Positions 1,197 through 57,935 of a stretch of 64,000 nucleotides of DNA are shown here, piece by piece. Origin of the DNA: an uncultured Lachnospiraceae bacterium. Lineage in GTDB: Bacteria > Bacillota > Clostridia > Lachnospirales > Lachnospiraceae. A program made the position numbers and the translations under genes. The first letter of the stretch is position 1. Every line of letters begins with the position of its first letter. The stretch lies in contig CALWSG010000006.1 in NCBI GenBank assembly GCA_944384155.1, positions 2,649 to 66,648 on the forward strand, given 5' to 3'. Under the pieces are notes generated by a model. It searched no databases and had not been told where the DNA came from. It worked only from the letters and a program-made list of their open reading frames with translations.

Positions 1197-1859
1197 ATGG
1201 ATGGAATAATATTTGACATGGACGGAGTGTTAATAGATACTGAAAGAAGATATTTTCAGTGCTGGCTGATGGCGGCAAAGGAATATAAGCTTGACATGAA
1301 AGCTGTAAAAAAATTGGTTTATGACTGTATAGGGCTTTCCGCAAAAAGTACGGAGGAACTGTGTAAAGAACGTCTTGGAGAAAGTACGTCATACAGAGAC
1401 ATTAGGCAAAGGGTGGATGAAATATTTAAAATACGCCAAATAGAGGAGGGAATACCGGTAAAGCCCGGTGCATATGCACTTTTGCAGTATTTAAAGACCA
1501 ACAGAATACCTGTAGGGCTTGCTTCATCAACAAAATATGACATTATAGTAAGAGAGCTTACGGAGCTTAAGCTTATAGATTATTTTAAGGTAATAATAGG
1601 GGGAGATATGGTTAAAGCCTCAAAGCCGGCACCTGACATATATATAAGGGCCTGCATGGAGTTAAAAGTTCTTCCATGTTGTACCATAGCCATAGAGGAC
1701 TCGGAGAATGGTCTTAGGGCGGCGAAGGCAGCAGGCATGAAAACAGTAATGGTTCCGGATCTTATAGAATATCATGAAGGTCTGAAACCATATACAGATG
1801 AAAAATTCAACAGTCTTACAGATATACTGGAGGCAATGAGGAAAGGTAAAATGTATTAA
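1197..1859 (+). CDS. HAD-superfamily hydrolase (beta-phosphoglucomutase-like, subfamily IA)
   Basis: N-terminal DMDG motif I, LASS motif II, KPAPD motif III, IEDSENG motif IV. Confidence 0.9.
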   Translation: MDGIIFDMDGVLIDTERRYFQCWLMAAKEYKLDMKAVKKLVYDCIGLSAKSTEELCKERLGESTSYRDIRQRVDEIFKIRQIEEGIPVKPGAYALLQYLKTNRIPVGLASSTKYDIIVRELTELKLIDYFKVIIGGDMVKASKPAPDIYIRACMELKVLPCCTIAIEDSENGLRAAKAAGMKTVMVPDLIEYHEGLKPYTDEKFNSLTDILEAMRKGKMY

Positions 1860-1891
1860 TGTTCAGCAAAAAGGGAATATTTAAAAAAGAA

Positions 1892-1920
1892 TTGTAAATA
1901 AATTTCAAATGCTATATACT
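1892..1920 (+). promoter_or_regulatory. sigma-A-type promoter for M16 peptidase-era-recO
   Basis: TTGTAA(1892-1897)-N17-TATACT(1915-1920), 45 nt upstream of an AGGAG-led ATG. Confidence 0.55.
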
Positions 1921-1964
1921 AATATCTAAAGTGAAGTTTAGCATTAAAATAAGGAGAGAAAAAC

Positions 1965-4895
1965 ATGACAGTAAAGGCTATAACGGAGGAAATGGTTCCG
2001 GCATACAGTATTATAAGTATAACAGATATTAGTGAGTTAAATACAAAAGCATATTATTTAAAGCATAAAAAGACAGGTGCCAAGGTGGCACTTATGGTAA
2101 ATGATGATGAAAATAAGGTGTTTAATATTGGTTTTCGAACACCTCCTCAAAATGACGCAGGGCTTCCACATATACTGGAGCACAGCGTTCTTTGCGGTTC
2201 TAAAAAGTATCCGGCAAAAAATCCGTTTGAGGAGCTTATACAGGGCTCATTAAATACATTCTTAAATGCAATGACTTTTCCCGACAGAACAATATATCCT
2301 GTTGCCAGCTGCAATGATAAGGATTTCAAAAATCTTATGGACGTATATCTTGATGCAGTATTTCACCCAAGCATATATGACAGGGAGGAAATATTTAAGC
2401 AGGAGGGCTGGCATTATGATTTGCAGTCAAAGGACGGAGAAATAACATATAACGGTGTGGTTTATAATGAAATGAAGGGGGCATTTTCAGACCCGGAAAG
2501 TGTTCTTGAAAGATATGTAAACAGGGCATTATACCCTGATAACTGTTATGGGTATGAGTCGGGAGGAGACCCTGAGAGAATTCCCGAGCTTTCATATGAG
2601 GAGTTTCTCGATTTTCACAGGAAATATTATCATCCTTCAAACAGCTATATTTATCTTTATGGAAATATGGATATGGAGGAGAGGCTTGATTATATAGATA
2701 AGGAATATTTGTCGGCGTATGATATGCTTAATATTGACTCTGCCGTAAAATATCAGAAGCCTTTTGACAAGGTAAAGATTCTTGAGGGAACATATCCTGT
2801 AGGAAGTGATGAGGATTGTACAGATAAAGGATTTTTATCATATGCGGCAGTTACGGGCGATTCAGATGACAGAGAGCTTTACTATGCATTTAAGGTATTA
2901 AATTATGCTCTTTTAAGTATGCCGGGAGCACCTGTAAAGCAGGCGCTTATAGATGCAGGAATAGGAAAAGCAGTGACAGGAGGCTCGGGAGACGGCATTT
3001 TACAGAATTATTTTATAATAAATGCAAAAAACACAGACGTATCAAAGAGAGACCGGTTTGTATCAGTTATTGAAAATACACTTAAGGATATTGTAAAAAA
3101 GGGAATAAACAAGAAATCATTAAAAGCTGCATTAAATGTAATGGAATTCCAGTACAGAGAGGCAGATTTTGGCAGCTATCCCAGAGGCTTATATTACTGT
3201 ATGTATGTAATGGACAGTTGGAATTACAATGATGATAAGCCATTTATACATGTAAAAGCGGGAGATACCTTTGCAAAGCTTAATAGGCTGGCAGAAACAT
3301 CATATTTTGAGGAGCTTATAGAAAAATATATTTTAGATAACACTCATAAGGTCATATATGCCCTAAAGCCCGAAAAAGGACTGGAGGAGAAAAAATCAGA
3401 AAAGCTTTGTGATAAGCTTAAGTTATATAAGGATTCACTTACTGAGGAGCAGATAGAAAAGCTGGTGGAGGACACTAAGGAACTTGAGAAGTACCAAAGC
3501 GAGCCGTCACCAAAGGAGGATATAGAAAGGATACCTGTTCTTGAGATAAAGGATATAGAAAAAAATCCAAAGCCTTATAATTACAAGGAGAGAAATGAGG
3601 ACGTAAAGGTTATATTTTCTGACGTATTTTCAAACGGAATATGCTATATAAATGCATCCTTTGACTGCAAATACGTGCCAAAGGAGCTTATCCCTTATGC
3701 AGGCTTTCTTGAAAATATACTTGGAAGAATGGATACGGAACATTACAGGTATTCGGACTTAAATAATGAGATTAATATACATTCCGGAGGATTGTCAACA
3801 AATGCCGTAGTCTATAATATGAACAGTGACAACGGAGATTATAATGTCCGTTTCGATGTTAATATCAAGGTATTTTATAAGGAGATTCCATTTGCCTTTA
3901 AGATTATGGAGGAAATACTTCTTCATACAAATGTGGAAAATGAAAAAAGGCTGAAGGAAATTATAGGTGAAAATCTTACTAATATACGTTCGTCAATTAT
4001 ATCGTCAGGTCACCGTACTGCACTTTACAGAGGATATTCATATGTAAGCAGCTCAGGAATGGTACTTGACATGATTAACGGAATAGGGGCATATGAATTT
4101 TTTGACAGGCTTGATAAAAACTTTGACTACAGAGAAATAACAGAAAATCTGAAAAAGACCATAAGGCTTATATTTAACAGGAAAAATATAATAATAGGCT
4201 GTACCTGCGATGAGGAGGGATATAAGCTTATGGCAAAGGAGATAAAAACATTGGCAGACAGCCTGTATACAGATGAACTTATAAAAGAGGGTGACAGACC
4301 GGAACCTGAACCTAAGAATGAGGGAATTGTAATACCATCACCTGTATCTTATGTGGCAAGGGTAGGTAACTTTAAGAAAGCAGGCTTTAAATATACGGGA
4401 ACTTTACTTGCTCTCAGAAATGCACTTGATTATGGATATTTGTGGAATAATATACGAGTAAAGGGAGGAGCCTACGGAGTTATGAGCAACTATCAGGCAG
4501 CCGGAGGCAATATGGGATATATGTCATACAGAGACCCTAATGTATCAAAGACAAGTGAAGTATTTCTTTCAATACCTGAATACTTGAAGGACTTTACCGC
4601 CGATGAAAGGGAAATACGAAAATATATTATAGGAGCAATAAGCAGTCTTGATACTCCGTTAAATCCAAGAGCGGAGGGAAGCCGTTCCTTTACGGCATAT
4701 ATTTGCGGTAAAACTAATGATGAGCTTAAGCAGGAAAGAAATGATGTATTAAGCTTAAGCCGGGAAAAAATAAGGGAAACGGCTCCTGTAGTAGATGAAG
4801 TTCTTAAACAGAATTATGTATGTGCCGTAGGAAATAAGGAAAAGATAAATCAGGCAAAGGATATGTTTAAGGAAATCAGGGAAATATTTAAATAG
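1965..4895 (+). CDS. Insulinase-family (M16C, presequence protease-like) zinc metallopeptidase
   Basis: Inverted zincin HILEH motif, GSLNTFLNAMTFPDRT, GVVYNEMKG, RVKGGAYG; 976 aa. Confidence 0.92.
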   Translation: MTVKAITEEMVPAYSIISITDISELNTKAYYLKHKKTGAKVALMVNDDENKVFNIGFRTPPQNDAGLPHILEHSVLCGSKKYPAKNPFEELIQGSLNTFLNAMTFPDRTIYPVASCNDKDFKNLMDVYLDAVFHPSIYDREEIFKQEGWHYDLQSKDGEITYNGVVYNEMKGAFSDPESVLERYVNRALYPDNCYGYESGGDPERIPELSYEEFLDFHRKYYHPSNSYIYLYGNMDMEERLDYIDKEYLSAYDMLNIDSAVKYQKPFDKVKILEGTYPVGSDEDCTDKGFLSYAAVTGDSDDRELYYAFKVLNYALLSMPGAPVKQALIDAGIGKAVTGGSGDGILQNYFIINAKNTDVSKRDRFVSVIENTLKDIVKKGINKKSLKAALNVMEFQYREADFGSYPRGLYYCMYVMDSWNYNDDKPFIHVKAGDTFAKLNRLAETSYFEELIEKYILDNTHKVIYALKPEKGLEEKKSEKLCDKLKLYKDSLTEEQIEKLVEDTKELEKYQSEPSPKEDIERIPVLEIKDIEKNPKPYNYKERNEDVKVIFSDVFSNGICYINASFDCKYVPKELIPYAGFLENILGRMDTEHYRYSDLNNEINIHSGGLSTNAVVYNMNSDNGDYNVRFDVNIKVFYKEIPFAFKIMEEILLHTNVENEKRLKEIIGENLTNIRSSIISSGHRTALYRGYSYVSSSGMVLDMINGIGAYEFFDRLDKNFDYREITENLKKTIRLIFNRKNIIIGCTCDEEGYKLMAKEIKTLADSLYTDELIKEGDRPEPEPKNEGIVIPSPVSYVARVGNFKKAGFKYTGTLLALRNALDYGYLWNNIRVKGGAYGVMSNYQAAGGNMGYMSYRDPNVSKTSEVFLSIPEYLKDFTADEREIRKYIIGAISSLDTPLNPRAEGSRSFTAYICGKTNDELKQERNDVLSLSREKIRETAPVVDEVLKQNYVCAVGNKEKINQAKDMFKEIREIFK

Positions 4896-6726: not shown

Positions 6727-9276
6727 TCAGTGGACAATGCAGGAGCTATGCTCCAATGCGGCAGGAATCTCATACTGTGTATCCCATGTTGTACCTTCAC
6801 TGCCGAGGAAACGTATTCTGTAGACAACCTCCCTTGTGCTTCCATCAGGGCAGCTGCTTGTGGCAAGGCTTCCCGATTCAGTACATATAGTATATTTGGC
6901 ATGACATTTACATGTTTCAGTAGGAACGGTTCCCTCAGCAAAGTATTCGGTTACAATCATATTTCCCTCCGGGTCATTATCACACAGCCCTTCCACAGGA
7001 AGGTAACCGCATTTTTTGCATACCTGTGCGGTAACTACTGAATCAGGCTGAGCCGGTTCGGAATAGGTATAACCTTTTTCTGTGTGAATACGGCTCATAA
7101 TTTTGCTCCAAAGTACTTTGTGATAGCTTTCGTTATATACATACTTTCCTATATCGGCATTTTCGTCAAATCCTGTCCATATACCTGCAGTCAGGTAATC
7201 AGAATATCCCACAAACCATAAATCGTAGCTGTTTGTGGTAGTGCCTGTCTTGCCGGAAATATACTGACCGCTTACGTTTGCTGCAGTACCGGTACCTGAT
7301 GTCACTACGTCATGCATAGCGTTAGTTAAAAGCCATGCGGTAGATTCTTTTATAACACGTTTTGTTTCAGGCTCCTTTTCAAGTATAACCCTTCCGTTAT
7401 AATCAGTAACCTTTGTATAGTAGACAGGTTCCGTGTAAACACCTCCGTTTGCAATAGTTGCGTAGGCATTTGTAATCTCAAGGTTATATACGCCGTCTGT
7501 AAGACCGCCCAGGGCAGTAGACTGGTTGGCATCTGAAACTACGGTGCCGTCAGCAAGCTCTCTGCTCTCAACCATACTTGATATACCCAGATTTTCCAAA
7601 TATTCAAGTGCTACTGAAGGACCTACGGCAGTAATGGTTTTTACTGCAATAATATTTGCAGACTGTTCAATAGCATATCTTATATTCTGAAGTCCGTGAT
7701 AACCGGAATTCCACCAGTTATTTACGGCACGTCCGTTGGTGTAATTATAAGGAGCATCATCATATACAGTGGCAAGGGTCTCACCGTTTTCAAGGGCAGG
7801 AAGAAATGCCGCAAGTATCTTAAAGCAGGAGCCCGGCTGTCTTGTTGAGTCGGTAGCTCTGTTAAGAGAACGGCTTGTTTCCTTCTCGCCGCGTCCTCCT
7901 ACCAAAGCCTTTACATGCCCGGTCTCCTGATCAATGACGGTAAATGATGCCTGAGGCTGCAGCGTAAAGTAAGTGGTTTCACCGAGAATTTCATCACCTT
8001 CCTTAAGATATTCTGCTTTATAAGCATCAATACAGCTTTGAGCCTCCTCCTTTGACTTAAATATAAGCTTAAAGTCTGAATCTCCAAGAAGTGTTTTATA
8101 GTGATAAGTAATATTTACGTTTGAATAATTTTCAACAGTTCCATCTGCATGCTGCACAGACCATCGCCAGTCAAAGGAATAGTATACGCTTCCGGGATAA
8201 TTGTCGGGGTTTGAAAGCTCCTCATCACAAATACGCTGTATTGTAGAGTCCTGAGTGGAGTATATGCTTAAACCACCGCTGTAAAGTGCATTGGCAGCCT
8301 GAGTTGAGGTATAGCCTTTTTGCTCCATAAGGTCTTCAATGACCTGGTCTATAAGCTCGTCAACAAAGTATGAATAAGGCTCCTCTTCGGCAGTTTCGGC
8401 ACTTATTACCTGAATTCTTGAATAAACATCATCATTTACAGCCTCATTATATTCCTCCTCTGTAATGTGACCGTAGGCAAGCATATTGTCAAGGGCAACC
8501 TGACGTCTCTTTGCATTGTTTTCAGGATTATATATAGGATTATAGTATTTTGTAGGATTCTGTGTAATGGCTGCGATAACGGCACTCTCTGATATGGTAA
8601 GCTCAGATACATCTTTATTAAAATATCTCTGTGCCGCTGCCTGTACGCCGTAGCAGTTTGAACCTAAAAATATGGTGTTTAGGTAATTTTCCAAAATGAT
8701 GGATTTGGAGGTTGTTTTTTCAAGCTCAAGTGCAAGGTACTGTTCCTGTATCTTACGTTTTATAAGTGAACCCATGTTATCTTCACGGCCTCCGTCCTCA
8801 AAAACATTATTTTTGAGAAGCTGCTGTGTGATAGTGCTGGCCCCCTGCTTTGAGCCTGATGTAATAAGCTCAAAGCCTGCCCTTATAATACCTTTAACGT
8901 CAATGCCGTTATGCTCGTAAAAACGCTCGTCCTCAAGGTCTATAAATGCATATATTAAATGCTCGGGAATCTGGTCAATAGACACAGGGATACGGTTTGA
9001 GCCTGTAGTTGTGAGCTTTTCTATCTCATTTCCATCAGAGTCATATACGGTGGTTGAGTACCCAACAGGCGCAATGTTTAAATCTTCAACATCAGGTGCG
9101 CCGTCAAGAATGCTTTTTACCATTCCAAGCCCCAGAAATCCCCCGGCTATGCAGATAAGAAGCACGGTAAATATTAAAACTCTGAAAATATTTACCGTAA
9201 GCTTTGTTGAAAGTTTGCGTGGCGTTGAAACAAGGTCTTTATGCTTCTTAGCAACGCTATTTTTGCCAAAATTCAT
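6727..9276 (-). CDS. Class A penicillin-binding protein (PBP1A, transglycosylase-transpeptidase)
   Basis: GT51 motifs EDERF, QGASTITQQL, RKIQE; transpeptidase SCFK (SxxK), SAN, KTGT. Start moved to ATG 9276 (AAGGA RBS). Confidence 0.95.
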   Translation of the reverse strand: MNFGKNSVAKKHKDLVSTPRKLSTKLTVNIFRVLIFTVLLICIAGGFLGLGMVKSILDGAPDVEDLNIAPVGYSTTVYDSDGNEIEKLTTTGSNRIPVSIDQIPEHLIYAFIDLEDERFYEHNGIDVKGIIRAGFELITSGSKQGASTITQQLLKNNVFEDGGREDNMGSLIKRKIQEQYLALELEKTTSKSIILENYLNTIFLGSNCYGVQAAAQRYFNKDVSELTISESAVIAAITQNPTKYYNPIYNPENNAKRRQVALDNMLAYGHITEEEYNEAVNDDVYSRIQVISAETAEEEPYSYFVDELIDQVIEDLMEQKGYTSTQAANALYSGGLSIYSTQDSTIQRICDEELSNPDNYPGSVYYSFDWRWSVQHADGTVENYSNVNITYHYKTLLGDSDFKLIFKSKEEAQSCIDAYKAEYLKEGDEILGETTYFTLQPQASFTVIDQETGHVKALVGGRGEKETSRSLNRATDSTRQPGSCFKILAAFLPALENGETLATVYDDAPYNYTNGRAVNNWWNSGYHGLQNIRYAIEQSANIIAVKTITAVGPSVALEYLENLGISSMVESRELADGTVVSDANQSTALGGLTDGVYNLEITNAYATIANGGVYTEPVYYTKVTDYNGRVILEKEPETKRVIKESTAWLLTNAMHDVVTSGTGTAANVSGQYISGKTGTTTNSYDLWFVGYSDYLTAGIWTGFDENADIGKYVYNESYHKVLWSKIMSRIHTEKGYTYSEPAQPDSVVTAQVCKKCGYLPVEGLCDNDPEGNMIVTEYFAEGTVPTETCKCHAKYTICTESGSLATSSCPDGSTREVVYRIRFLGSEGTTWDTQYEIPAALEHSSCIVH

Positions 9277-52740: not shown

Positions 52741-52769
52741 ATATTAGTGTGCCGCATGGCATACGGTAA

Positions 52770-52842
52770 GCTGCCTTGGCTCAGTAGGTAGAGCGTCGCC
52801 TTGGTAAGGCGGAGGTCGGGGGTTCAAGTCCCCTAGGCAGCT
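52770..52842 (+). tRNA. tRNA-Thr (GGT)
   Basis: GCTGCCT/AGGCAGC acceptor, GCTC-AGTAGGTA-GAGC D arm, TCGCC-TTGGTAA-GGCGG anticodon arm, TTCAAGT T loop. Confidence 0.96.
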
Positions 52843-52877
52843 TTTTTATATATGTTTATGTGAGAAAAGAAAACCGG

Positions 52878-52906
52878 TTGACAGATTGTAAAGAATATGA
52901 TTTACT
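52878..52906 (+). promoter_or_regulatory. Putative promoter for the accessory cassette
   Basis: TTGACA-N17-TTTACT with TG extension, about 165 nt upstream of the first gene. Confidence 0.5.
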
Positions 52907-53073
52907 TATAGTAGAATTATAAAGAATTACGTAAGAAATTTCAATGGAATTAGTTACTAAAGAGAAGTTGGGTATTTGTGTTATATTTGATTTGTTTAAT
53001 TTTCATAATTCAACGCAAATATTGAAAGTTTCGCAAAAATCTATGATTTAAACAATATGAAAGGAGAAATTCT

Positions 53074-53475
53074 ATGTTAAAATTTAAAAGAATAATTGTT
53101 TTATTATTTGTAGTGGCAGCTTTTTCTATGACTACATATGGAGCAGTACAAAATCTGCTTGTTGCAAATCAAACTGAATATCGCAGCTCAGCTATAGAGA
53201 AATCAAAGTTAACAAAAGATAATTCGGCTGTTGTCAATATAACATCGGGGCCTATTCGGGATAGAAATACAATATTAGCATATGTAAAATGCACTTCAGT
53301 TTCCACTTATATAACTGAAACAGGAACATTTAATTATCCAAAATCAATAAAATTGTATTATAATAACCCATTTGACTATACTCAATATATGAATAAGAAA
53401 TATAAGGTATATGCCAAGGTTAGACCATATTCTTATTCAACAACAGTAACAGTTGCGGGAGACTTTACACCATAA
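53074..53475 (+). CDS. Small Sec-secreted hypothetical protein (133 aa)
   Basis: AAAGGAG RBS; basic-hydrophobic signal peptide ending TYG-A; beta-strand-like, Tyr/Thr/Lys-rich mature part ending VAGDFTP. Confidence 0.8.
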   Translation: MLKFKRIIVLLFVVAAFSMTTYGAVQNLLVANQTEYRSSAIEKSKLTKDNSAVVNITSGPIRDRNTILAYVKCTSVSTYITETGTFNYPKSIKLYYNNPFDYTQYMNKKYKVYAKVRPYSYSTTVTVAGDFTP

Positions 53476-53556
53476 TTTATTATCATCAGGTCATTAATGT
53501 TTTAGCACAATATTAATGGTTTAAAAATCTGAATATTAAAAGATGGGGTGTTAATA

Positions 53557-54732
53557 GTGAAAATTAATATAATTAAAGGTGTTGCTATTTGTTCGGCTGT
53601 TTTTTTATGCTTGTCAGGCTGTATGGAGACTGGTGAAAGCAGACCCGGTGAAGATAAAGAAGAGAAAACTAAAGCAGAATATGAAAATTTTGAAGATGTT
53701 TTAGAAGATATTGACTGGAGTGGGAATTACATATCTGCAGAGTTTGGTGAAAATTTTAAAATAGAAGCATCTGTAGTTTCTGACACAGTATATAATAATG
53801 AATTCGGGCTTTATAATATAAGTGAGGTGGAAGAAGTATACGGGGAAGAAGAGAAAATAGCAGCAGATTTAGACAGCTATTATGGCAGCAAGGTTTCGTT
53901 TATTACATCAGATATGACTAATCCTGTTAAGCAGTCACCAAATGTAGGATATACTTCAAGAGTATGGTGGTATAATTCTAAAGATAAATATAATTCTTAT
54001 AACTTTATAGACACTCTTGATGTGTTTTTTCCTTTTGAGTCAAAAGATTTAGATAAAAATATTATAGATGAAAAGCTTGATGTGTTTTTGCAGTATTTCT
54101 CAAAATATATGAATTTTGAGCCTAAGGATTACAGATGCATAGAATTCGGAGAAGAATTTTATGACCGTATAGAGGAATTTGGAAATAAATCGGGAAATAC
54201 CGTGATTGATGAGAGAATAGTGGAAAGCAGAGAGAAATTTTATAATATAAGATTTTCACCTGTGCTTGATAATGGTGTGTTTTTGGAGGATGCAGGTGAC
54301 TATGTACAAAAAAAATTATTAGATGGTGAAAAGGTTTCTCCGATTTTAAGCTATAGCAAAGAAAATAATACTGTATCGCCATATGTAAAGGTAAATGCAG
54401 ATATTGTTATGGACAGTGAATATAATATTAAAAGCTTTGAAGGAACAAATTCCGTTAATATTGAAAAAGAGCCTTTTAAAAAGGTGAGTATTGTTTCTCT
54501 TAAGGATATTATTAAGAAGGTCTATGAAAAAAATAAATATAATATTGTTACTGTCACTGATATATCCTTGTATTATAGCGGATATATAGGTGATGAGTTA
54601 AATGAAAACAATATGCGGGATATATATTTAGCACCTTATTGGGTTGTTACATATTACGTTGAAGGTAATGATGTGCAGTATCAGTATATTTATTTGGCAG
54701 AAACAGGAGAATTGTTGTTTGCTACGGTATAG
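53557..54732 (+). CDS. Hypothetical acidic lipoprotein
   Basis: Lipobox LSGC; GTG at 53557 preceded by GGGGTG; C-terminal 'YLAPYWVV...YLAETGE' resembles PepSY-like ends. Confidence 0.75.
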   Translation: MKINIIKGVAICSAVFLCLSGCMETGESRPGEDKEEKTKAEYENFEDVLEDIDWSGNYISAEFGENFKIEASVVSDTVYNNEFGLYNISEVEEVYGEEEKIAADLDSYYGSKVSFITSDMTNPVKQSPNVGYTSRVWWYNSKDKYNSYNFIDTLDVFFPFESKDLDKNIIDEKLDVFLQYFSKYMNFEPKDYRCIEFGEEFYDRIEEFGNKSGNTVIDERIVESREKFYNIRFSPVLDNGVFLEDAGDYVQKKLLDGEKVSPILSYSKENNTVSPYVKVNADIVMDSEYNIKSFEGTNSVNIEKEPFKKVSIVSLKDIIKKVYEKNKYNIVTVTDISLYYSGYIGDELNENNMRDIYLAPYWVVTYYVEGNDVQYQYIYLAETGELLFATV

Positions 54733-54756
54733 ATAGATTATGTGGGAGAAAATAAC

Positions 54757-55551
54757 ATGAGAGTATGCTTTTATTCTATAATAAGGTGCATCGCAAGAGC
54801 AGTGTTAAGCAAAAGATTTTTGCTGTCCTTATGTTTGGTTTCAGCTTTATTTATAATGGATTTATTGCCAAGCTTTGTGTCAGGAATAAATGTGTACCAG
54901 GGTGAGGTTTATTATTCTTATGACTTAATAAGTCTGTATATGTTAAACGGCTCCACAATGTTTTTGGGGTTTACGTTTATTGTTACAATAATTCCTTATG
55001 CAGGAGCCTTTTGCGATGATTATAACAGTGGATTTCTCATTCCTTTTATGGGAAGAACTACGGGAATGGGATATGCTGTCGGAACGGCTTCTGCCTGCGG
55101 TGTAAGTGCTTTTTTATGTACATTTTTAGGACAGGTAATGTGTCTGCTGTTTTATAATATATTTATACCTTTAAATAACCATTCACAGTATACATATTCA
55201 GATTATAGTCTGGTAGAAGCAGGAAGGTATGTATTATTTCTGTTATGCTTTATTGTTCTGTACAGTCTTAGAGCAGCATTTTTCGCATTGGTAAGTTTAC
55301 TTGTGTCCACCTTTGTAAAAAATAAATATATTATTTTTTCTATCCCGCTTATAATGTACTTCTTATTAATGAAGTTTGGATATGGCGTCCTTAATTTGCC
55401 GGGATATTTAAATGTTCTTGGCATTTATTTTGGATTCACATTTGGAGAAGGTAATGAGGTTATAAGTGTTTTATATGCAATGTCCTTTACTGTGTTTACA
55501 GGTATTATAGCAGGAAGCGTGCTTTTAAGAAAAGTAGGGAGGTGCTTATGA
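54757..55551 (+). CDS. ABC permease-like membrane protein 1
   Basis: About 6 TM helices; 'IPYAGAFCDDYNSGF...GRT' loop motif; overlaps the next gene (ATGA). Confidence 0.75.
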   Translation: MRVCFYSIIRCIARAVLSKRFLLSLCLVSALFIMDLLPSFVSGINVYQGEVYYSYDLISLYMLNGSTMFLGFTFIVTIIPYAGAFCDDYNSGFLIPFMGRTTGMGYAVGTASACGVSAFLCTFLGQVMCLLFYNIFIPLNNHSQYTYSDYSLVEAGRYVLFLLCFIVLYSLRAAFFALVSLLVSTFVKNKYIIFSIPLIMYFLLMKFGYGVLNLPGYLNVLGIYFGFTFGEGNEVISVLYAMSFTVFTGIIAGSVLLRKVGRCL

Positions 55552-56384
55552 GAGCGGGGAAGTTATTGGTTAAAGCAGACTTAATACGTTTAATTCGCGG
55601 TCCCAAGTTTTGGTTGATTATTTTGTTTATGCTTTTTTTTGTATATGATTTTGTATCACAGGTGAAACCTTATGCCGTAAATTCAGGCTTAGGAATAACA
55701 CCTTACCTGTATCCGGTATATCTTGCAGATTGGTCAGGCAGATTATACTCCCTTTTGTTAATTATTGTGGCTATGAGTGATGCACCATTTTATACCGGCA
55801 GTGAAATGTTTATAAAGCTTCGTGTAAATAAATATATATGGGGATTGTGTAAAAATTTATATATTTTCGCGATTTCCTTTATTTTTCAGGTTATCACCAT
55901 TGTTTTCACAATAGTGATGTGTCTCCCTTATCTGGGTATAAGCAATGACTGGGGAGATGTTATCAGAACATTTCTGACAGACAGACAGGGTGCGATATCG
56001 GTGTCAGGAATTCTTGAAGAAGGGATTGAGGTATTATATCATCCTTATACTGCCATGATATATGAATTGTTAATTATGACTCTTATTAGTTTAATGCTTG
56101 GATTAATGATATTTATTTTAAACGGATTGTTTAAAAGCTATGCCGGAACTGTTGTTATAGGAATTTTATCATGTCTGCATACATATATAAGCGATTTTGA
56201 TTTTTATGGTGTATTAAAAAATGTGTATAATAAAATACCTATGTCATGGATTGATTTATCAGGATATACAGAAGGGATGTCCCCGATAAAGGCATGCATA
56301 ATTATTTCAGTTATATTACTTGTGTTGACAGTAATTCAAATGATTTTAATTAAGTGTGGAAAAATAACAATAGAAGGGGAATGA
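55548..56384 (+). CDS. ABC permease-like membrane protein 2
   Basis: About 6 TM helices; 'SDAPF...LRVNKYIW' loop motif; GGGAGG RBS. Confidence 0.75.
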   Translation: MRAGKLLVKADLIRLIRGPKFWLIILFMLFFVYDFVSQVKPYAVNSGLGITPYLYPVYLADWSGRLYSLLLIIVAMSDAPFYTGSEMFIKLRVNKYIWGLCKNLYIFAISFIFQVITIVFTIVMCLPYLGISNDWGDVIRTFLTDRQGAISVSGILEEGIEVLYHPYTAMIYELLIMTLISLMLGLMIFILNGLFKSYAGTVVIGILSCLHTYISDFDFYGVLKNVYNKIPMSWIDLSGYTEGMSPIKACIIISVILLVLTVIQMILIKCGKITIEGE

Positions 56385-56386
56385 AG

Positions 56387-57034
56387 ATGAGTAACGATTA
56401 TATTATAGAAGTAAAAAATGCCAAAAAATATTATAAGGAAACTAAAGCATTAGATGATGTGACAATTATGTTTGAACGAAATAAAATTCACGGAATAATC
56501 GGGAGAAACGGTTCGGGGAAAACGGTGCTTCTAAAGGCTGTATGCGGACTTATAAAACTTACGGGAGGTATGGTTAAAGTAGAGGGGAAAATTGTGGGAA
56601 AAGATATTGAAATGCCCCAAAATATCGGTGCAATAATAGAAAAGCCGGGATTTATAAATGAATTTAGCGGTATGGAGAACCTCAAGTTTTTGGCAGGACT
56701 TACAGGAAAGGCAGATACAGAGCATATATCACAAATAATGGAGTTTGTGGGATTGAATCCTAAATCAAAAAAACATGTTTCTAAGTATTCACTTGGAATG
56801 TGTCAGAGACTTGGCATAGCACAGGCAATAATGGATAATCCGGACATACTCGTTTTGGACGAGCCTACAAACGGGCTTGATAAAAATGGAATTAAAGAAT
56901 TTAGGCAAATGATATTGACGAAAAAGGAAGAAGGCAAAACAATTATTATTGCAAGCCATAATGGTGAAGATATAAGACTGCTTTGTGATACGGTTCATGA
57001 GCTGGAGGAAGGAAAATTAGTAGTTGCAGAGTAA
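56387..57034 (+). CDS. ABC transporter ATP-binding protein (bacitracin/bacteriocin-immunity-like subgroup)
   Basis: GRNGSGKT, IEKPGF, YSLGMCQRLGIAQA, VLDEPTNGLD, ASH. Confidence 0.92.
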   Translation: MSNDYIIEVKNAKKYYKETKALDDVTIMFERNKIHGIIGRNGSGKTVLLKAVCGLIKLTGGMVKVEGKIVGKDIEMPQNIGAIIEKPGFINEFSGMENLKFLAGLTGKADTEHISQIMEFVGLNPKSKKHVSKYSLGMCQRLGIAQAIMDNPDILVLDEPTNGLDKNGIKEFRQMILTKKEEGKTIIIASHNGEDIRLLCDTVHELEEGKLVVAE

Positions 57035-57122: not shown

Positions 57123-57935
57123 ATGATTAAAAATAATGCCATTACGGCATTAAAGGGAATTATAGTAGGGGGAACAATGCTGGTGCCGGGAGTGAGCGGA
57201 GGCTCAATGGCAATGATTTTAGGTATATATAACAGGCTTGTTTCGGCAGTAAGCTCATTCCCTAAAAATAAAAAAGAAAACTTGATGCTCCTTACATTTT
57301 TTGCAATGGGAGGAGGGCTTGGAATGATTTTATTTGCCAAGCCTATTTTAAGCCTTATAGAACGATTTCCTATGCCTATGATGTACTTTTTTATGGGTGC
57401 AGTGGCAGGGAGTATTCCTCTTATATTAAAGGAGGCGAAGGTAAAGGAATTGTCATGGAGTACGGCAGTACATTTTTTAATAGGAATTACCTTGGTAATG
57501 CTTTTTTCCATTATACCTGAGGGAGAAGCTAAACTCCGGCTTACAAACGGCGTACTAAGCTATGTGCTTCTCGGTATGGCAGGCTTTGTGGCAGCAGTTG
57601 CACTTGTGCTTCCGGGAATAAGCGTTTCTTATCTTTTGCTTCTTATGGGGCTTTACCATGAAACCATGAATGCTGTAAGTACATTATACTTTCCATTTCT
57701 TGTGCCTATGGGTATAGGTCTTATAGCCGGAGTACTTCTTACAACAAGAATACTCGAAACTGCAATGGTAAAAAAGCCTCAGGCAACATACGTAATTATA
57801 TTGGGTTTTGTTGTCGGCTCAGTAATAGAAATCTTTCCGGGAGTTCCGGGGTTAAGCACCATAGCACCTTCCATTATTATGGCTGTACTTGGATATTTAG
57901 CAGTACAGGGTGTAGGAAAGCTGGAAAGGGTATAG
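57123..57935 (+). CDS. DUF368-like membrane protein
   Basis: Duplicated PGVSGGSMA / PGISVS motifs, multi-TM. Confidence 0.85.
   Translation: MIKNNAITALKGIIVGGTMLVPGVSGGSMAMILGIYNRLVSAVSSFPKNKKENLMLLTFFAMGGGLGMILFAKPILSLIERFPMPMMYFFMGAVAGSIPLILKEAKVKELSWSTAVHFLIGITLVMLFSIIPEGEAKLRLTNGVLSYVLLGMAGFVAAVALVLPGISVSYLLLLMGLYHETMNAVSTLYFPFLVPMGIGLIAGVLLTTRILETAMVKKPQATYVIILGFVVGSVIEIFPGVPGLSTIAPSIIMAVLGYLAVQGVGKLERV

Follow-up and report, generated by a model that had tools for sequence, protein, structure and literature searches.

A conserved five-gene cassette of Lachnospiraceae combines a LanFEG-like ABC exporter with an acidic lipoprotein and a secreted jelly-roll protein, and may act in envelope protection

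The five genes at positions 53074-57034 of the window, that is, of the whole 64,000-nucleotide stretch of contig CALWSG010000006.1 from an uncultured Lachnospiraceae bacterium, constitute one conserved operon, as their co-location in other genomes is far beyond chance. The five open reading frames (ORFs), which all point in the same direction in the window ORF listing, encode a small secreted protein of 133 aa, an acidic lipoprotein, two permeases (permease 1 and permease 2) and an ATP-binding cassette (ABC) ATPase. An earlier note, made from the letters alone, had listed these same components, and all of them are present, with minor corrections of the gene starts. The evidence below supports well that this five-component operon specifies an ABC exporter resembling LanFEG, meaning heterodimeric, of type V and equipped with an E-loop, together with two dedicated extracellular partners. 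We further propose, with a probability of about 0.4, that the small protein, a predicted jelly-roll, binds or senses an envelope-active ligand or the target of this ligand, and works with the lipoprotein and the exporter in envelope protection.

The linkage of the five genes was apparent from several searches. Word-based searches of 5.8 billion proteins returned 2 clusters for the small protein, 2 for the lipoprotein and 11 for permease 1, while exhaustive phmmer searches defined a small-protein family of 15 representatives at 50% identity. Wherever metagenome contigs were long enough, the five genes were found together. A profile built from 28 small-protein sequences (A8) was run over 401 Lachnospiraceae genomes, one per genus, and detected full-length homologues in 11 of them, in all 11 cases as the first gene of a cassette comprising the lipoprotein, permease 1, permease 2 and ATPase genes. 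Within the genus of the window, the small protein is found exactly where permease 1 is, namely in the organism's own genome (G000) and in G001, G004, G007 (two copies) and G010. A further cassette is carried by Lachnotalea glycerini DSM 28816, and a scan of genome contigs with profile A7 yielded 4 loci; an earlier contig scan with alignment A2 had found no relatives. The lipoprotein gene directly follows the small gene in 16 of the 19 complete cassettes compared, and a lipoprotein homologue lies directly 3' of the most distant members of the small-protein family (P0025, P0031, P0033 and P0034). In no case did the small gene occur without the lipoprotein gene; lipoprotein and ABC genes with no small gene exist in other genera, and as second copies in genomes with a full cassette, the examples being G022, G288, G057, L040, G199 C13 and, as a second cassette, G175. 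These data confirm two expectations of the earlier note, namely that the small ORF is consistently linked to the ABC genes, which profile searches and neighbourhoods showed at every locus found, and that such all-hypothetical cassettes recur in gut Clostridia, here in 11 of 401 Lachnospiraceae genomes, in Lachnotalea and in metagenome contigs. Its idea of a fixed gene order is borne out in the linkage of the five parts. All five are kept in two main orders, small gene-lipoprotein-permease 1-permease 2-ATPase and small gene-permease 1-permease 2-ATPase-lipoprotein, and in the variant small gene-permease 1-lipoprotein-permease 2-ATPase of G318. No description of this cassette or of similar ones was found in the searchable literature.

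The exporter part of the cassette consists of three genes, which lie on the forward strand like the tRNA gene, the small gene, the hairpin and the lipoprotein gene described below. Permease 1 (54757..55551, 264 aa) was defined from its ORF, alignments and hydropathy, which indicates six transmembrane (TM) segments with the N-terminus inside; permease 2 (55548..56384, 278 aa), defined from its ORF, alignments and hhalign comparison, aligns with it end to end. The two are distant paralogues, since hhalign matches their alignments (A3 versus A4) with an E-value of 1.4e-4 and brings their conserved motifs into register. In permease 1 this motif reads P-Y-[AS]-G-x-[FY]-C-[DE]-D (PYAGAFCDD in the window), and in permease 2 it reads S-D-A-P-F, at the equivalent loop. 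Both had been pointed out as unusual loop motifs, and both turn out to be conserved across their families. Hydropathy and the positive-inside rule place them in the cytoplasmic TM2-TM3 loop, the probable position of a type V coupling helix. Permease 2 additionally has a longer extracellular loop with a conserved WGD. No Pfam match was obtained at E<=10 for any of the 11 aligned members of each permease family, nor any NCBIfam match at E<=1, and permease 1 has no sequence match in the PDB; permease 2 gave an in-register, non-significant match to PmtD (E 9).

The ATPase gene (56387..57034, about 215 aa) encodes an ordinary ABC_tran domain according to Pfam. Its best NCBIfam model is TIGR03740, the lantibiotic-protection ATPase LanF, at 183.7 bits, below the cut-off of 309.75, followed by DrrA, PmtC and GldA. 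The nearest PDB sequences are the nucleotide-binding domains (NBDs) of ABCA1 and ABCA4, 1vpl, 6xjh_C (an ABC ATPase found in the same entries as PmtD) and NosF, and we therefore assign the protein to the type V (ABC-2) exporter class. The sequence KYSLGMxQRLGIAQA, singled out previously as the signature of a subgroup, is found in the window ATPase and in the homologues read. A glutamate occupies the Q-loop position, within the consensus I-I-E-x-P-[GAS]-F, in all cassette ATPases (19/19; IGAIIEKPGF in the window). This E-loop has been described as a conserved hallmark of LanFEG transporters, in which it reportedly contacts a short intracellular helix of the permeases (bioRxiv 10.1101/2025.10.09.681468).

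The first of the two extracellular partners is the lipoprotein (53557..54732, 391 aa; defined from its ORF, AlphaFold2 (AF2) modelling and Foldseek). Its lipobox reads LSGC, and a lipobox is present in 13 of the 16 homologues examined first as well as in L047, L049 and L056-L060. The mature protein has an isoelectric point (pI) of 4.3, and homologous lipoproteins are acidic in 16 of 16 cases examined, with pI 4.05-4.7. The AF2 model (predicted local distance difference test score, pLDDT, 78) displays a multi-domain alpha/beta fold, and the protein ends in a PepSY-like module (...YLAPYWVVTYY...AETGELL). The top Foldseek match, and the best whole-length structural one, is 5coz (EUBREC_2869), with E 1.7e-12 and TM-score 0.52-0.57; yet identity is 14%, there is no sequence-profile match, and 5coz is an uncharacterised structural-genomics protein for which no description was found in the searchable literature. 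Its source, Eubacterium rectale, presumably belongs to the same bacterial family as the host. Weaker fold matches were to the C-terminal domain of YpeB, to the fungalysin chain 4k90_B and to the C. difficile lipoprotein CD1622, which we take to be of PepSY type. No Pfam, NCBIfam or PDB sequence match was obtained for the lipoprotein.

The second partner is the small protein (53074..53475; defined from its ORF, an AF2 model and family alignments), for which no Pfam or NCBIfam family match was found. A signal peptide covers approximately residues 1-23, seen as an N-terminal signal helix in the model, and ends in a cleavage site of the TYG|A or AYA|A type that is conserved among the homologues. 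The mature protein of about 110 aa is basic, rich in tyrosine and terminates in G-D-F-T-P-COOH. In alignments A1 and A8, G129 is invariant, and K45 and the terminal P133 are nearly so. All free small proteins are basic (pI 8.0-9.6), complementing the charge of the acidic lipoproteins. Apart from the signal helix, the AF2 model (pLDDT 89.5) consists of an eight-strand jelly-roll beta-sandwich. Foldseek retrieved generic jelly-rolls, among them viral capsids, CBM15 and CBM6, the TNF-like lectin BC2L-C, PirA and C1q-like phage fibre tips, and found no specific structural homologue at E<=1e-3 in the PDB or BFVD. The nearest folds of the predicted structure, CBM15, CBM6 and the TNF-like lectin, are binding modules, none of them a significant match, suggesting a role in binding.

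The components of the cassette evolve at different rates. Across 19 cassettes, mean pairwise identity falls from 54% in the ATPase through 25% in permease 1 and 23% in both permease 2 and the small protein to 18% in the lipoprotein. For close pairs, the ratio of non-synonymous to synonymous substitution rates (dN/dS, NG86) is 0.08-0.09 for the ATPase, 0.09-0.16 for the permeases, 0.14-0.23 for the small protein and 0.19-0.26 for the lipoprotein, values that are rough because dS is near saturation. All five genes are thus under purifying selection, the lipoprotein being the fastest-evolving component and the small protein changing at a permease-like pace. The prediction that small protein and lipoprotein would be hypervariable and co-evolving therefore fails in its first half, the identities and dN/dS values showing that the small protein is not hypervariable, and survives as a hint in its second half. 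After the other components were regressed out, distances between small proteins still correlate with those between lipoproteins (partial r 0.40, permutation p about 5e-4), and residual distances of the small protein and the ATPase do not (r -0.12). This hints that the small protein and the lipoprotein co-evolve, with alignment saturation and shared ancestry as caveats.

Comparison with characterised systems brings the cassette closest to LanI and LanFEG, as in NisI/NisFEG, SpaIFEG and the orphan CprABC of C. difficile. Like these, it combines one NBD gene with two distantly paralogous six-TM permeases of type V, and shares the Glu E-loop and a conserved short cytoplasmic permease loop. As with LanI, a dedicated, fast-evolving surface lipoprotein with a lipobox is encoded with the FEG-like genes, and relatives of the cassette also lie beside two-component or other sensory regulators. 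The differences are equally clear. The best match of the ATPase, TIGR03740, stays below its cut-off, and the permeases match no LanE/LanG (MutE/MutG-type) or Pfam model. The lipoprotein is 5coz/PepSY-like, a NisI/SpaI fold or sequence match being absent among its top matches. The gene order is I-E-G-F-like and not F-E-G. The organism's own genome, which is 99.96% complete, encodes no LanC-like protein above the Pfam cut-off and no lanthipeptide synthetase, and no LanRK regulator flanks the window cassette. Finally, the secreted jelly-roll protein is an addition that has no counterpart in LanFEG loci.

One clue to what the jelly-roll does is a variant in which it is anchored to the membrane. 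In a metagenome-assembled genome (MAG), Lachnospiraceae C.4_2 (G199), and on an independent metagenome contig (P0027/L039), a single-pass protein of 219-225 aa carries the jelly-roll outside the cell, and about 60 conserved residues at its N-terminus lie in the cytoplasm ahead of the membrane anchor. The gene lies directly 3' of an extracytoplasmic function (ECF) sigma factor gene, which scores above the cut-off of TIGR02937, and directly 5' of permease 1. The same N-terminal segment is found elsewhere in G199 with other C-terminal regions, once beside a second ECF sigma gene, and it therefore behaves as a modular anti-sigma N-domain. Gene context thus points to an anti-sigma-like role for the anchored protein. 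Its jelly-roll is acidic, unlike the basic free copies. The arrangement recalls RsgI-type ECF anti-sigma factors with carbohydrate-binding modules, which are likewise single-pass proteins encoded after an ECF sigma gene; it differs in that the anchored protein has no RsgI_N or zf-HC2 match, and the window copy is free and has no adjacent sigma gene. Because of this anti-sigma-like variant, we think it likelier that the jelly-roll binds or senses than that it is a diffusible toxin.

Other regulators, heterogeneous in type, adjoin cassettes whether or not these have the small gene: OmpR-type response regulators with histidine kinases, GntR regulators and ECF sigma factors. LytTR regulators lie beside three cassettes (G004, G200 and G022), and a LytTR response regulator/histidine kinase pair lies beside a more distant relative in G005. 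BlaI and BlaR1 are found in two unrelated genera, at 1920-4157 of L043 in Lachnotalea glycerini and at 2224-3878 of L055 in G318. This association of a lipoprotein-ABC core with varied regulators is the pattern of inducible envelope-defence modules. In Lachnotalea and G318, the genes for the BlaI repressor and the BlaR1 sensor (peptidase M56) are divergent from the cassette, and in Lachnotalea an additional, unrelated secreted protein of 138 aa is encoded after BlaR1.

In the mechanism that we propose, two copies of the ATPase and the permease 1/permease 2 heterodimer would form a type V (ABC-2) exporter, in which the glutamate of the E-loop would couple to the cytoplasmic TM2-TM3 loop motifs PYAGxFCDD and SDAPF. 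Its extracellular partners would be the membrane-tethered, acidic, PepSY-like lipoprotein and the basic, Sec-secreted jelly-roll. The latter would capture or sense an envelope-active ligand, either an antimicrobial or its envelope target, in cooperation with the LanI-like lipoprotein and the exporter, and the exporter would expel the ligand or keep it from the membrane. We infer complex formation, ligand binding, the direction of transport and the protective function. Several observations weigh against this proposal. The window cassette has no adjacent regulator, so that the sensor role is inapplicable as such at this locus. Freely secreted binders have few precedents, the secreted lipid-free form of NisI being one. 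The ATPase scores below the LanF cut-off and the permeases are matched by no LanE/LanG model, and the LanFEG analogy is therefore one of function and not of membership. Lastly, the first position of the small gene with the strongest ribosome-binding site (RBS), the basic charge of its product, the duplication in G148, the presence of several divergent cassettes per genome and the patchy distribution fit a bacteriocin at least equally.

The alternative that survives best is a toxin-immunity system, in which the small protein would be a Sec-exported, unmodified antibacterial directed against the envelopes of competitors, the acidic lipoprotein would neutralise it at the surface of the producer, and the LanFEG-like exporter would clear it from the membrane. 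Lactococcin 972 and mediterrocin offer the parallel, as Sec-dependent, all-beta bacteriocins whose loci include immunity genes for membrane and ABC proteins. Mediterrocin, of 89 mature residues, comes from a member of the Lachnospiraceae, M. gnavus (PMC12345188), and provides a characterised precedent for the architecture within the host's own family. As in these loci, the cassette encodes a small, beta-rich, Sec-dependent protein first, with a signal that ends in an AxA-type site, followed by membrane and ABC genes and with no modification genes nearby. Such an organisation would also account for a small gene that always comes first, has a strong RBS and is followed by the lipoprotein gene in 16 of 19 cassettes, and for a small gene that never occurs without the lipoprotein while lipoprotein-ABC modules occur alone, as orphan immunity would. 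The complementary charges of the two proteins and their residual co-variation agree with it, as do the duplicated small gene of G148, the several cassettes of G007 and G175, the patchy distribution, the AT-rich, tRNA-adjacent location and an integrase beside one small gene/lipoprotein pair. Characterised LanFEG-type pumps confer lantibiotic self-immunity, and related operons confer resistance (bioRxiv 10.1101/2025.10.09.681468).

Resemblance to lactococcin 972, which the earlier note had drawn on, holds for the architecture and not for family membership. The cassette has two six-TM ABC-2 permeases and a lipoprotein in place of a seven-TM DUF1430 protein, its ATPase reaches 91.9 bits with TIGR03608 against a cut-off of 254.85, and the small protein, a putative antibacterial, is a predicted eight-strand jelly-roll of about 110 aa, not an Lcn972 sandwich. 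Membership was rejected, as no protein could be placed in the Lcn972, DUF1430 or TIGR03608 families and no Lcn972 structure was in the top 50 fold matches. The suggested lactococcin 972-like ABC immunity module is instead a LanFEG-like ABC with an E-loop. Beyond this particular family, a membrane-anchored, anti-sigma-fused variant is hard to square with a diffusible toxin, and the small protein shows neither hypervariability nor diversifying selection, matches no bacteriocin family and has no 2LGN-like fold among its top 50 Foldseek matches. To our knowledge, no jelly-roll bacteriocin has been described. LanFEG pumps handle small amphipathic peptides and not folded 12-kDa proteins, and BlaI/BlaR1, ECF sigma factors and GntR are more typical of a response to external stress than of bacteriocin quorum sensing. 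We regard a toxin-immunity function as a serious alternative, if a somewhat doubtful one. The same reserve applies to its wider form, in which the small protein would found a new class of Sec-secreted jelly-roll proteins, antibacterial or kin-discriminating, with the lipoprotein and E-loop exporter as immunity, and one lineage would have reused the target-binding domain as an anti-sigma sensor.

An exporter of endogenous cargo appears improbable. Here the ABC-2 pump would extrude a self-made amphipathic peptide, lipid or glycolipid, and the lipoprotein and jelly-roll would serve as extracellular acceptors or carriers, after the models of PmtABCD, for phenol-soluble modulins, or of the mechanotransducing NosDFY-NosL. 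The ATPase is also near 6xjh_C, with its PmtD-sharing entries, NosF and the ABCA lipid transporters, permease 2 gives the weak, in-register PmtD match, small beta-sandwich proteins can carry lipids, and the swapped or added surface lipoproteins of some cassettes, including those of BspA type with leucine-rich repeats (LRRs), suggest a generic platform for surface proteins. Set against this, no biosynthetic gene is conserved beside the cassettes, the E-loop points to the LanFEG-like branch in particular, the distribution is sporadic, unlike that of a core envelope function, and Foldseek detected no lipid-carrier fold. That the genes are chance neighbours, or the small ORF not a gene, has in its favour only the absence of annotation and Pfam matches, and is refuted by a conserved family of 15 representatives with a confident fold prediction, a dN/dS of 0.14-0.31 and linkage at every locus examined, in at least 12 genera.

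Several cassettes depart from the basic plan. In G175, L057 (G175:C23, 417-8673) contains tandem cassettes, of which the first is complete, including the small gene, and the second lacks the small gene but encodes two permeases, an ATPase and a pair of lipoproteins (252 and 338 aa). L033 (G148:C12) carries paralogous small genes at 4115-4507, before the lipoprotein, and at 8009-8407, after the ATPase, whose products both end in G-R-Y-T-P. In L053 (G288:C8), a 611-aa ORF at 1531-3366 is hit by the profiles of both permeases, and thus represents a fused heterodimer; a lipoprotein homologue follows. The MAG Lachnospiraceae C.4_2 encodes a 635-aa BspA-type LRR protein between permease 2 and the ATPase (L031, G199:C33, 6348-8255). 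On another contig of this MAG, a 605-aa protein encoded before the permeases (L040, 3938-5755) takes the place of both the PepSY-like lipoprotein and the small protein; it is similar to the LRR protein at its C-terminus, and we consider it lipoprotein-like because its N-terminal part ends in a cysteine. In these MAG cassettes, it seems that various surface proteins accompany the ABC core. In a metagenome contig (L048, 184-3470), a phage-type integrase gene, and not the permeases, comes after a distant small gene/lipoprotein pair. Lastly, G002, a genome of the window's genus, has only short permease 1 and permease 2 fragments of 48-52% identity (L023, C30, 337-830), with no small gene, lipoprotein or ATPase, and these look like the remnant of a decayed cassette.

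At the window locus itself, the small ORF has a strong Shine-Dalgarno sequence, AAAGGAGAAATTCT, before its ATG. The lipoprotein more likely starts at the GTG at 53557 than at 53548. Permease 1 starts at the ATG at 54757, where reading of the junction shows a GGGAGA RBS, and permease 2 at the ATG at 55548, in an ATGA overlap with the permease 1 stop; the ATPase starts at the ATG at 56387 or, alternatively, at 56381, overlapping the permease 2 stop. Because of these overlaps and positions, the last three genes are translationally coupled, as had been claimed. An A/U-rich 10-bp hairpin (53492..53518), found by RNA folding, lies in the 81 nt that separate the small gene from the lipoprotein gene. 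A 95-nt stretch folds at -17.1 kcal/mol (z = -2.2), and no canonical T-tract terminator was found; on this weak evidence, the hairpin may serve transcription attenuation or mRNA stabilisation. Upstream, the leader between tRNA-Thr and the small gene is about 230 nt long and AT-rich, and a scan for a consensus sigma-70 promoter found none in it. At 52885-52927 it contains an imperfect 12-nt direct repeat, ATT[GA]TAAAGAAT, with a spacing of 31 nt, which could be where a regulator binds or a chance product of AT-rich DNA, and is not convincing.

The tRNA neighbour and the low GC content reported before were both found, as a tRNA-Thr (GGT) gene predicted by ARAGORN at 52769..52843, which is given for context only, and as a modest drop in GC from 0.35-0.42 in the flanks to 0.28-0.38 in the cassette. 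The other flanking genes of the window, for an ABC exporter, an esterase, a MATE transporter, a PopT-like DUF368 protein and PheA, are unrelated housekeeping and transport genes. Just 3' of the cassette, 57123-57935 encodes the DUF368/PopT-like polyprenyl-phosphate transporter (Pfam E 4e-41; it falls short of the NCBIfam equivalog cut-off), whose gene does not accompany the cassette in other genomes. An empty site was not demonstrable, the PopT, MATE and ABC neighbours being non-syntenic in the nearest species examined (at most 51% identity). A phage or plasmid origin was rejected: PHROG matches are absent for the four non-ATPase proteins, and tblastn with the small protein found nothing among 50,697 phage and 72,556 plasmid records. 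An anti-phage defence function was rejected, since PADLOC gives generic ABC/AAA matches for the ATPase alone.

Other system types were also set aside. In line with the earlier note, none of the window ORFs flanking the cassette encodes a modification enzyme, a peptidase-ABC or a two-component system. A locus for a ribosomally synthesised and post-translationally modified peptide is excluded by the lack of a modification enzyme near the cassette, and a BceAB system by two permeases of about 270 aa, no FtsX match and no flanking two-component system in the window. Nutrient uptake was rejected because no solute-binding protein family is represented and the ATPase belongs to the exporter (type V) class; family searches matched the cassette to no characterised nutrient or drug transporter, again as anticipated.

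Four of the five proteins belong to no Pfam or NCBIfam family, yet their genes are among the most rigidly linked sets in this analysis. Lachnospiraceae dominate the healthy gut. If the cassette protects against envelope-active antimicrobials, it would represent an uncatalogued resistance or immunity determinant in these commensals, and the LanFEG (E-loop) class would be widened by further families of permeases and by novel extracellular partners. Should the small protein be antibacterial, it would constitute a new structural class of bacteriocin, relevant to competition between gut strains. The anti-sigma-fused variant offers a natural handle on the ligand of the jelly-roll.

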